Shown one piece after another: positions 45,064 to 46,869 of a stretch of DNA of 64,000 nt (its first letter is position 1; every line of letters begins with the position of its first letter). Both the position numbers and the translations under genes were made by a program. Origin of the DNA: Flavitalea sp. (lineage in GTDB: Bacteria > Bacteroidota > Bacteroidia > Chitinophagales > Chitinophagaceae); assembly GCA_044224935.1 (NCBI GenBank), contig JBGAJL010000007.1, positions 4,161-68,160 of the forward strand. Reading direction: 5' to 3'. The notes under the pieces were generated by a model, which was not told the DNA's origin, did not search any database, and saw only the letters and a list, made by a program, of their open reading frames with translations.

Positions 45064-46869
45064 ATGAAAAAGATAATTTTCATTGCCATCACAACATTAC
45101 TTGCGTCAGCATCTGCGTTTTCACAGATAATCAAACGCAGCACAACTATCACGCAGCATCCTGCCGCGGCACCCGCTCAACCTGCCGCTCCCGCACCCCC
45201 GCCGGCTCCTGTGCAGGCGCCGGCACGCACGATGTCTCCCGTAATGCAAAAGACCGCAGTTAATACAATACAGGCCGACAAGCTCGTTTTCCTCAACACC
45301 AAAGACAAAAAAAATGGCGTGCTGGTAAAAAAAACGTTGAACAACCATTTCTCACCGTCTAACGAAATGAAATTGTTCGCATTCACCAAGGACGTGCGCT
45401 ATCCCGACAACACCGTGCTGCACATCCGCCTGAAGAAAAATCCGTCCTTTACCGGTCAGTCAGCGGCTGTTAAGGCCAATGCAAAGCAAACAGGAGAAGA
45501 TAATAGTAACGGTCTTAACTGCATTATTTCCAATGTATCGTTGTCGGCAACTTCCACCGATTTCTTAAATAACAATTATTCGGCGCAGACCGCTCATATT
45601 TTTCCGGGCGCAATTTATACCTATGAGCATCTGTACGATGGCAGTTTCAAAGAAGAAACGGCAAACAGAAATCCTATTGTTATCGGATGCGATAATCCCA
45701 ATATGCAATCACCGACCTATGAAATGGTCGCAAATCCCAACCAGGCAACGATCAGCACAGCGCTGGCCGAGCTCTTCAGTCGCTTTCAGGGAGCTTCTGC
45801 CAATGAAAGCATGGCCTACCAGGTTTTTGAATCGGCCAATAACGCCGATCTCAACCTCAAACTGGGCGCAGGCGGAAGCGGATATGGCTTCAGTTTTAAT
45901 AATGTATTTAGTACCGACGAACAGGACAGGCATGTATATATGACCATCGACGCCAGAAAATCATTATTCACTATGAGTGCATCGCTTCCCGACAGTGGCT
46001 ATTTTAAAAAACCGGTAAACGGCTCTTCACCTTTTGTGATCATGGGAAGTGTGAGCTATGGGGTGCGCGTGCTGGCGAATATGGAATTCACTTTTATGTC
46101 GAAATCGGATGCTGATAATTTCAAAGCGGCATATTCAGGATTCGGAGTGAACGCGAATGTGAACCTCGACCTGTTATCGAAAAACAGCGCCGCATCGACT
46201 AACGTGAATGCCTATGTTATTGGCGGCCCAAGCTCAGGAGCAACTGTTTCTTTCGACAAGCAGGACCTGCAAAATAAAATTTCAACGCTTCTTTCAAGCG
46301 CCACCTATCAAAATGCAAGACCTATCAGTTATGAACTGTATGATATGGATGGAGCAGTTATAGGCGAACAAAGTGCAACGGACCAGTTCACCGTTCGCAA
46401 TTGCGTTCCCGCAGATGCTCCCACAAATCTTGCCAACCCAATGGTCAGCATCAGAAGCGGCGACGACGGAAAAGACAGAGACACGCATTACACGCTTGAG
46501 CTGTTCAACAGCAATGGCCAGCAGGCGGCGATGTATGTCAACAACAGTAATACTGATGAATATGCGGCCAACGAATCAGATCCTGTGCAGATGACCGCCG
46601 GCACACCGACAGGAGAAATAAAATACCAGGGCTCATTGCCTCTTCCCGTGATGCGCGCACCGGTGCTAAACGATTTCAGCAATGGTGGCAAGCTGCATAT
46701 TTCCATCACACCGAACGGACACGATACCTGGAAAATACAAACACTTACGCTGACATTGAATTTTCAAAATCAAAAGCCAAAAACCATTACCTGGTCGGGC
46801 AAAACACTTTCACAGGACAGCCGCGACAAAGATCTCATGTTTGATAACGGGTTCCAGACAATACAATAA
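45064..46869 (+). CDS. Secreted cholesterol-dependent-cytolysin-like (CDCL, thiol-activated cytolysin fold) pore-forming protein with a non-canonical C-terminal domain
   Basis: The start is moved to the ATG at 45064 (signal peptide MKKIIFIAITTLLASASAFSQ). A collinear series of blocks matches perfringolysin O domains 1-3: FPGAIY, ISTALAELFSRF, ESMAYQVFES, LFTMSASLP, GSVSYGVRV, YVIGGPS, RPISYELYD. No Trp-rich undecapeptide is present. Confidence 0.75.
   Translation: MKKIIFIAITTLLASASAFSQIIKRSTTITQHPAAAPAQPAAPAPPPAPVQAPARTMSPVMQKTAVNTIQADKLVFLNTKDKKNGVLVKKTLNNHFSPSNEMKLFAFTKDVRYPDNTVLHIRLKKNPSFTGQSAAVKANAKQTGEDNSNGLNCIISNVSLSATSTDFLNNNYSAQTAHIFPGAIYTYEHLYDGSFKEETANRNPIVIGCDNPNMQSPTYEMVANPNQATISTALAELFSRFQGASANESMAYQVFESANNADLNLKLGAGGSGYGFSFNNVFSTDEQDRHVYMTIDARKSLFTMSASLPDSGYFKKPVNGSSPFVIMGSVSYGVRVLANMEFTFMSKSDADNFKAAYSGFGVNANVNLDLLSKNSAASTNVNAYVIGGPSSGATVSFDKQDLQNKISTLLSSATYQNARPISYELYDMDGAVIGEQSATDQFTVRNCVPADAPTNLANPMVSIRSGDDGKDRDTHYTLELFNSNGQQAAMYVNNSNTDEYAANESDPVQMTAGTPTGEIKYQGSLPLPVMRAPVLNDFSNGGKLHISITPNGHDTWKIQTLTLTLNFQNQKPKTITWSGKTLSQDSRDKDLMFDNGFQTIQ

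Follow-up and report, generated by a model that had tools for sequence, protein, structure and literature searches.

A 64,000-nucleotide stretch of Flavitalea sp. DNA (GenBank assembly GCA_044224935.1, contig JBGAJL010000007.1; this whole stretch is called the window below) carries a plus-strand gene for a 601-aa secreted protein. We place the protein in the superfamily of the cholesterol-dependent cytolysins (CDCs) and CDC-like proteins (CDCLs), with a C-terminal domain (CTD) that is not of the CDC type, because profile searches, comparison with solved structures and the predicted fold agree. The reading that we favour, with a probability of roughly 0.6, is that of a stand-alone, Sec-exported CDCL of the MACPF/CDC superfamily which would act as a one-component toxin, likely on microbial targets. 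The CDCL family has been known since 2020 and its antibacterial role since 2024-2025, and the window CDCL is a further member of it. Activity has been measured only for two-component lipoprotein CDCLs of gut Bacteroides and Elizabethkingia, single genes being the commonest arrangement, and the window CDCL belongs to a soil Chitinophagaceae clade within that unstudied majority. Taken alone the window copy adds little beyond one more family member; the leads offered by its clade, namely a YGxR motif, a PLAT-like CTD with free-standing paralogues and a cassette of LytTR regulator, toxin gene and downstream array, lie largely outside the window.

Sequence, predicted fold and motifs of the CDCL

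Pfam recognised the Thiol_cytolysin family (PF01289) with E 8.1e-14 and 51.6 bits (score cut-off 25 bits), the match extending over profile positions 19-330 of 353. A phmmer search against the PDB returned pneumolysin at E 2.3e-10, collinear over aa 160-442, with the PGA, YG and GG blocks of the two proteins aligned, so that the collinearity with CDC domains 1-3 claimed in the original prediction is borne out on both counts. With a family profile built from 63 homologues the best PDB match was vaginolysin (3.5e-22), intermedilysin, pneumolysin, perfringolysin O and streptolysin O followed at 1e-18 to 1e-11, and the CDCL long and CDCL short proteins of Elizabethkingia anophelis (EaCDCL) were found at 8.6e-7 and 1.3e-4. 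By sequence, the clade is thus closer to the Gram-positive one-component CDCs than to the solved two-component CDCLs.

A model of the full protein, computed with AlphaFold2 (AF2) from the 63-homologue alignment, reached a mean predicted local distance difference test score (pLDDT) of 79, with core strands at aa 249-256, 290-307, 324-343 and 378-386 and helices at aa 260-268, 347-356 and 368-373. Foldseek matched this model to pneumolysin (8.7e-20) and perfringolysin O (1.3e-18), and gave a probability of 1.0 both to the CDCs (E 1e-19 to 1e-16) and to the CDCL structures 8g33, 6xd4, 8g32 and 9ccq, EaCDCL long (8G33) being matched at 1.3e-11 and EaCDCL short (8G32/9CCQ) at 6.4e-9. Matches of the full model to perforin/MACPF structures were marginal (E about 1e-3). 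The model shows the bent central sheet of the superfamily, predicted to be flanked by two helical segments with amphipathic peaks in both. A profile search and a structural comparison were the checks that the original prediction had proposed, and the outcomes it had named as counting against it, no profile match or no CDC fold, did not occur, as a PF01289 match and a predicted CDC fold resembling pneumolysin, perfringolysin O and known CDCLs were obtained. The features of the gene and its product are as follows.

45019-45026, plus strand: possible Bacteroidota -7 promoter element CAATTTTG, read from the sequence with low confidence, 38 nt upstream of the ATG
45064-46869, plus strand: coding sequence of the 601-aa CDCL, stop codon included
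45064-45123, plus strand: predicted type I (Sec/SPI) signal peptide, aa 1-20, cleavage S20|Q21, without lipobox Cys
45127-45261, plus strand: disordered N-terminal linker, aa 22-66, pLDDT <55, varying in length and sequence among homologues
45454-46344, plus strand: Pfam Thiol_cytolysin (PF01289), CDC domains 1-3, aa 131-427
45832-45933, plus strand: predicted transmembrane hairpin 1 region (helical bundle 1 in the soluble form), aa 257-290, from model and amphipathicity
46057-46068, plus strand: YGxR motif Y332-G333-V334-R335, the clade version of the CDC/CDCL YGR
46093-46197, plus strand: predicted transmembrane hairpin 2 region (helical bundle 2), aa 344-378, from model and amphipathicity
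46222-46227, plus strand: Gly-Gly pair G387-G388, aligned with the pneumolysin GG
46396-46866, plus strand: CTD, aa 445-601 (157 aa), in place of CDC domain 4, a PLAT/LH2-like beta-sandwich in the model

The frame runs from stop to stop over 44941-46869 (642 aa), and the in-frame ATG at 45064 in the list of open reading frames (ORFs) gives the 601-aa product. This start is supported by the homologues, as all 20 aligned sequences (20/20) begin at its MKK; the product length of the original prediction therefore stands. A protein identical to the window CDCL is already present in NCBI-derived data. The window CDCL agrees with the family consensus at 44/45 and 110/111 conserved columns, and with only one deviation in either set, a conservative change or a variable site, the gene is not decaying. 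As the -7 consensus of Bacteroides promoters is TAnnTTTG, we compared CAATTTTG with it; a scan for sigma-70 promoters and terminators gave results at or below shuffle expectation. The G+C content of the gene equals that of its flanks, flanking repeats are short and at chance level only, and signs of a mobile element at the gene, such as repeats beyond chance, an integrase or a composition shift, were not found.

The two regions expected to insert into the membrane can be placed on the model. The first comprises helix 260-268 and a low-confidence loop between strands 249-256 and 290-307, the second helices 347-356 and 368-373 between strands 324-343 and 378-386. The two highest peaks of the beta-amphipathic moment in the whole protein, at aa 260-270 (z 3.2) and aa 360-370 (z 3.9), both fall within these predicted hairpin regions, in line with the alternating polar and apolar residues noticed there originally.

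CDCLs are defined by the motif F/Y-F/Y-Xn-YGR and by a Gly-Gly pair at the start of the alpha-beta loop, the first aromatic position of the motif being variable (62% aromatic) (PMC7527733). In the window CDCL the first position is L301 and the second aromatic is F302, a position occupied by F or Y in 63/63 clade sequences. The YGR element takes the form YGxR, in which G333 and R335 are invariant (63/63) and Y332 is found in 60/63; relative to the pneumolysin Arg, R335 is placed one residue later in the ungapped HMMER alignment. From the alignment we take YGxR to be a clade-wide variant of the CDC/CDCL sensor motif. The conserved Gly-Gly claimed originally corresponds to G387, present in 63/63 clade sequences, and G388, present in 53/63. 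Two cysteines, C153 (nt 45520-45522) in an N-terminal strand and C447 (nt 46402-46404) at the junction with the CTD, are each conserved in 62/63 family members, which suggests a disulfide between them; it may staple the binding domain to the core.

The N-terminus, MKKIIFIAITTLLASASAFS|Q, combines a charged n-region, a hydrophobic core of 15 residues and small residues at -3/-1, and contains no Cys. Q21 is conserved in at least 90% of the aligned homologues, a comparable A/S-Q junction is present in most of the 63 clade members, and no Cys occurs in the first 30 residues of the window CDCL that could serve a signal peptidase II (SpII) lipoprotein signal. Since Q at +1 fits the Q-rule for Bacteroidetes substrates of signal peptidase I (SPI) (PMC5837995), we read the junction as an SPI site, and the Sec signal proposed originally is thus predicted to be of type I and not of the lipoprotein type. 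The Pro/Ala-rich spacer HPAAAPAQPAAPAPPPAPVQAPAR occupies exactly nt 45157-45228, as had been stated, inside the 45-residue linker.

Homology to CDCs at the sequence level ends by about aa 442 in both Pfam and phmmer. The protein contains only two Trp (W556 and W577), and a Trp-rich undecapeptide or cholesterol motif is absent from its whole sequence, which confirms the earlier statement that undecapeptide and domain 4 are lacking; the CTD is unrelated to CDC domain 4 and the protein is not a CDC in the strict sense. The CTD has two conserved motifs of its own, GDDGKDxDT and PNGHDTW. No Pfam family matched it at E up to 10, PLAT (PF01477) included, and the domain profile matched no PDB sequence at E up to 10. 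Modelled alone it reached pLDDT 91.7, and the top Foldseek matches were nearly all PLAT domains, led by the alpha-toxin C-domain (2.4e-3) and including 5-LOX, 15-LOX-2 and lipase C-domains. The match is weak (E 2.4e-3 to 1e-1, query-normalised TM 0.44-0.52, root-mean-square deviation 5-8 A), and for this reason we call the domain PLAT-like and treat lipid binding as hypothetical.

A search for the CTD at E <=1e-3 yielded 109 representative clusters. Most of them comprise proteins of 120-260 aa; about 20 are of CDCL length (about 530-640 aa) and match in their C-terminal part, and a few contain 8-13 tandem copies in proteins of 1000-2700 aa. Free-standing secreted CTD proteins of about 215 aa consist of signal peptide, linker and domain. 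Actinobacterial homologues likewise have no Pfam model for the domain, some being fused to PASTA or PKD. Examples of the family are P0071-P0079, L052, L057, L065 and L072, and P0093, P0113 and P0146. One candidate, P0070, which appeared to be a free-standing CTD of 75% identity, turned out to be the 3' half of a CDCL gene that is split on another contig, and was rejected. The metagenome contig L075 (397-2175) carries a clade CDCL divided into ORFs of 346 aa and 221 aa, of which the 3' piece at first resembled a free-standing binding domain, and a DUF4412 gene comes next; the split reflects either a frameshift or an error of assembly.

Related loci and their gene cassette

A scan of GTDB species representatives yielded 68 loci, and the counts given here refer to 37 distinct CDCL loci, the window included. 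The loci come mostly from metagenome-assembled genomes (MAGs) of soil Chitinophagaceae (Ginsengibacter, Puia, Hanamia, Flavisolibacter); they also occur in Thermoflavifilum thermophilum DSM 14807 and Mucilaginibacter sp. X5P1, which are cultured carriers of related genes. The best matches to the window CDCL, at 66-68% identity, are from Chitinophagaceae MAGs, and relatives appear in NCBI records as 'thiol-activated cytolysin family protein'.

A single CDCL gene is the rule, at 35/36 related loci. The unfiltered family profile, run over six frames of the 64 kb, found only the CDCL ORF itself, and a Pfam scan of about 40 long ORFs of the window gave no PF01289 or MACPF elsewhere, in agreement with the original prediction that no second CDC-like gene lies nearby. 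The gene had also been called an orphan. This is right in so far as it is single in the window; the suggestion that a single gene is something unusual does not hold, since genomes with just one such gene make up 821 of the 1578 Bacteroidota genomes that carry CDCLs (survey cited with PMC11169675, PMC11952106). The published survey set aside single-gene and non-lipoprotein CDCLs, its two-component set having been selected for SpII signals.

In the closest relatives the CDCL gene is part of a conserved cassette. It is preceded by a LytTR response regulator in divergent orientation, together with a TPR sensor kinase, and followed by a same-strand array of lipoproteins of about 190 aa (conserved ...SGTFSG...TDGKFDIPF), DUF4412 proteins and free-standing CTD copies. 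LytTR was found within 6 kb upstream at 16/33 loci and the downstream array at 12/27 loci, among them all loci with at least 50% identity and at least 3 kb of downstream sequence. Neither regulator nor array was present at 6/26 loci, the window being one of these. None of the cassette families (LytTR, TPR kinase, lipoproteins of ~190 aa, DUF4412, free CTD) occurs within the 64-kb window, which makes the window CDCL stand-alone; this is unusual among its close relatives and not unique in the clade. By the same token no candidate for an immunity gene stands beside the CDCL among the lipoprotein, DUF4412 and free-CTD families of the relatives, searched over the window.

The array of the relatives looks like an immunity island. 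Its lipoprotein family gave noise only when the family profile was run against the PDB, a remote homology of this family with the CTD was rejected (hhalign probability 3.5%), and no paper on DUF4412 was found in the literature searched. Cassette loci are L001 (6535-21779) and also L003, L005, L010, L011, L012, L026 and L028. Three further loci (L042, L043 and L045) have lipoprotein/free-CTD/DUF4412 arrays with no CDCL gene within the available sequence, L043 with up to about 15 array genes; possible explanations are orphan immunity arrays and a role of the families that is independent of the toxin. One MAG, MFD04944.bin.1.305, contains two clade CDCL loci, L009 and L010, which share 68% and 67% identity with the window CDCL; both have a LytTR regulator and a downstream array of their own. 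Multiple copies therefore occur in one genome, and the genome from which the window comes may hold more beyond the 64 kb.

Mode of action, targets and comparison with known systems

In the mechanism that we propose, the CTD, PLAT-like and with Asp-rich and Trp-containing conserved loops, would dock the exported monomer on the target membrane. Monomers would then join edge to edge through the domain 3 sheet, and the helical bundles at aa about 257-290 and 344-378 would unfold, the resulting hairpins making up a large beta-barrel pore. The window gene would have become separated from a cassette of the kind seen in its relatives. A one-component mode is favoured because of the single gene at nearly all related loci, the sequence nearer to one-component CDCs and the lack of an SpII signal. 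Microbial targets are weakly favoured for two reasons: the cassette of the relatives resembles a regulated toxin locus with an immunity island, and the only CDCLs tested so far kill related bacteria, an effect that a co-encoded lipoprotein blocks (PMC11169675). For the window CDCL itself other microbes are thus a likely target that the relatives, and only they, weakly suggest.

Several points weigh against this reading. The largest gap of a one-component mode concerns export past the outer membrane, as the protein has a type I signal only and its sequence explains no passage across the outer membrane of a diderm. Sorting by the type IX secretion system (T9SS) was considered here: NCBIfam gave only a sub-threshold, internal match to TIGR04183 (E 0.027, aa 414-441) and nothing at the C-terminus that resembles a T9SS sorting domain of either type A or type B. 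To our knowledge Actinobacteria have no T9SS, and the occurrence of the CTD in Actinobacteria and as a stand-alone protein speaks against a T9SS sorting signal. Export by T9SS or as a lipoprotein is not supported, there being no sorting domain and no lipobox Cys. Furthermore, the window is without immunity candidate, regulator or partner, and a partner or activating protease may be encoded outside the 64 kb. No single-gene CDCL has measured activity. The prepore-to-pore sensor may work differently, because the Arg of YGR is displaced by one residue. The PLAT assignment of the CTD model is weak (TM about 0.5, no sequence support) and lipid binding a guess; the arrays of the relatives suggest an immunity island by appearance only; and the free-standing CTD proteins are a conserved family of their own and not recent copies of the toxin domain.

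The serious rival to a microbial target, which we consider unlikely as things stand, is a eukaryotic one. A one-component cytolysin might act on eukaryotic soil cells such as grazing protists, nematodes or fungi, for defence or prey lysis, and would then not be antibacterial. PLAT-type domains bind eukaryotic-type membranes in alpha-toxin and lipoxygenases, and such domains are among the best structural neighbours of the CTD; in sequence and fold the window CDCL stands nearer to those CDCs that target eukaryotes, the absence of an immunity gene from the window is what an insensitive producer would lead one to expect, and some CDCL-rich Bacteroidota are nematode pathogens (mBio 2020, PMC7527733). 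However, a cholesterol-recognition domain and undecapeptide are missing, the close relatives have self-protection-like arrays and LytTR regulators typical of bacteriocin-like loci, and in the only CDCLs tested so far the killing was directed at bacteria, eukaryotic cells being spared (PMC11169675).

A more far-reaching version of the one-component reading is doubtful in our view. The Chitinophagaceae clade could form a distinct class of self-sufficient one-component CDCLs, exported by Sec/SPI, that bind a membrane lipid directly through the PLAT-like, possibly Ca2+-dependent CTD, a domain not described before, with producers normally protected by secreted free CTD copies and small lipoproteins acting as decoys or blockers, and with the window copy unguarded. 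If this were true, protection of this kind would be new for pore-forming toxins, and the window toxin would be harmless to its producer or countered from elsewhere in the genome.

It is improbable that the protein is the 'long', membrane-binding component of a two-component CDCL resembling the membrane attack complex (MAC), with short partner, protease and immunity gene elsewhere in the genome. Only 64 kb of that genome are visible, the model has the four-domain architecture of the 'long' type, and the only CDCLs with measured activity work in this way (PMC11169675, PMC11952106). Yet the known partners are adjacent and both have SpII signals, and here a type I signal is found and no partner in 64 kb; single CDCL genes prevail at the related loci, and EaCDCL long and short match the clade profile far less well than the one-component CDCs do. 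The model also lacks a long disordered activation loop in domain 2. Disorder in the AF2 model is confined to the N-terminal linker (aa 22-66), with a moderately confident loop near aa 94-106.

Still less probable is that the gene was left stranded and functionless after losing its regulator and downstream genes, or that its product is periplasmic and has a role other than pore formation. The cassette present in all close relatives is missing here, no export route beyond the periplasm is evident, and an apparent frameshift in the adjoining beta-helix gene suggests that decay may be tolerated at this locus. Against this, the 601-aa frame is intact, every motif residue is retained, the one change in 45 and the one in 111 conserved columns are conservative or at a variable site, and the cassette is also missing at five other loci.

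Compared with known systems, the favoured one-component reading combines traits of several. The CDCLs of Evans et al. 2020 (PMC7527733; E. anophelis CDCL long, 6XD4 and 8G33) share with the window CDCL the PF01289 domains 1-3, the four-domain layout, the Gly-Gly pair, the second aromatic and Tyr-Gly, and in both the CTD is unrelated to domain 4 and has no undecapeptide. EaCDCL long matches in fold (E 1e-11 to 1e-10) but is remote in sequence, and the window CDCL differs from the Evans CDCLs by the shifted Arg of YGxR, the PLAT-like CTD and the type I instead of a lipoprotein signal. The BfCDCL/EaCDCL systems with BcdI (Abrahamsen et al. 2024, PMC11169675; Johnstone et al. 2025, PMC11952106) belong to the same superfamily and phylum and are expected to form the same kind of beta-barrel pore, and the lipoprotein genes adjoining the toxin gene in the relatives recall BcdI. 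In contrast to these systems, the window CDCL has neither a short partner beside it nor an SpII signal, an activation loop is not recognisable, the window contains no immunity gene, and the gene is not on a mobile element. These two-component lipoprotein CDCLs are protease-activated antibacterial toxins with an immunity lipoprotein (PMC11169675, PMC11952106), and the original view that targets and biology of CDC-like proteins are largely unknown has been overtaken in their case.

The Gram-positive CDCs (perfringolysin O, pneumolysin, vaginolysin, intermedilysin) give the best sequence and fold matches for domains 1-3 and are single-gene, one-component, Sec-secreted toxins, but the window CDCL lacks their domain 4, the undecapeptide ECTGLAWEWWR and the cholesterol-recognition loop, and its producer belongs to the diderm Bacteroidota. 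For the CTD the closest structural neighbours are the PLAT/LH2 domains (alpha-toxin C-domain, lipoxygenase N-domain, C-domains of pancreatic and lipoprotein lipases), with ~140 aligned positions. The PLAT domain of alpha-toxin is a membrane-docking module on a toxin, a role to which that of the CTD may be likened on the weak structural match; the CTD is about 30 residues larger, shows no sequence similarity to PLAT domains and has motifs not shared with them. The high diversity of the CDCL binding domain has already been noted in the literature, and we found no paper on single-gene CDCLs with a type I signal or on this CTD. BSAPs (PMC12853789) are likewise secreted pore formers of Bacteroidota from the MACPF/CDC superfamily with a C-terminal receptor-binding domain, and differ in that they contain a MACPF domain where the window CDCL has PF01289.

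The clade offers good handles in its confidently folding CTD, which lends itself to separate expression, the invariant YGxR and the conserved regulator-toxin-array cassette of the relatives. Should it prove to be a class of one-component toxins, it would link the mechanism of the Gram-positive CDCs with the complement-like mechanism of CDCLs.

Genomic surroundings in the window

The CDCL gene is alone on the plus strand between two minus-strand SusC/SusD operons, which belong to PULs of the rhamnose/pectin type. The upstream neighbour is a divergent SGNH/GDSL esterase gene at a distance of 166 nt, which heads the first operon; downstream, the last gene of the second operon lies convergent at a distance of 11 nt. 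The ORFs of the upstream operon are as follows.

43704-44897, minus strand: ORF of the upstream SusC/SusD operon
40485-43595, minus strand: ORF of the same operon
38672-40498, minus strand: ORF of the same operon

The original prediction had seen a glycan-utilisation region here, and the gene content agrees with this: the window contains three SusC/SusD pairs, four GH78 genes, GH123, RhaT, an FGGY kinase and a class II aldolase. A SusC or SusD homologue lies within 10 kb at only 2/36 other CDCL loci, which makes the polysaccharide utilisation locus (PUL) setting incidental and says little about function, and no synteny of either flanking gene was found at other CDCL loci. That the CDCL is tied to the flanking PULs, for instance by lysing plant, algal or fungal cells to free rhamnose-rich glycans, is accordingly very hard to credit, since beyond the intergenic region shared with one operon and the short distance to the last gene of the other there is no sign of a shared regulator, the gene stands on the strand opposite to both operons, its base composition equals that of the flanks and PUL genes rarely accompany its relatives.

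The last gene of the second operon encodes a pectate-lyase-like right-handed beta-helix (46881-48213, minus strand) and is read as two overlapping ORFs in different frames. The N-terminal part (47656-48213) has a twin-arginine-type signal (SRRALLK) and matches Pfam Pect-lyase_RHGA_epim, and the C-terminal part (46881-47696) matches Pfam Beta_helix. The gene is either a frameshifted pseudogene or affected by a sequencing error. Four ORFs in the glycan clusters, at 14635-15894, 15902-16567, 16516-18348 and 57700-59274 (419, 221, 610 and 524 aa), have no Pfam match at E <=1e-4 and may encode glycan-active or surface proteins. A regulator of the GntR/LacI type is encoded at 37633-38664. The block at 18354-37486 is densely packed with genes of rhamnose utilisation and comprises four GH78 alpha-L-rhamnosidases (one of 1483 aa), the RhaT symporter and the FGGY kinase, together with a class II aldolase fusion, a xylose-isomerase-like TIM barrel protein and an esterase.

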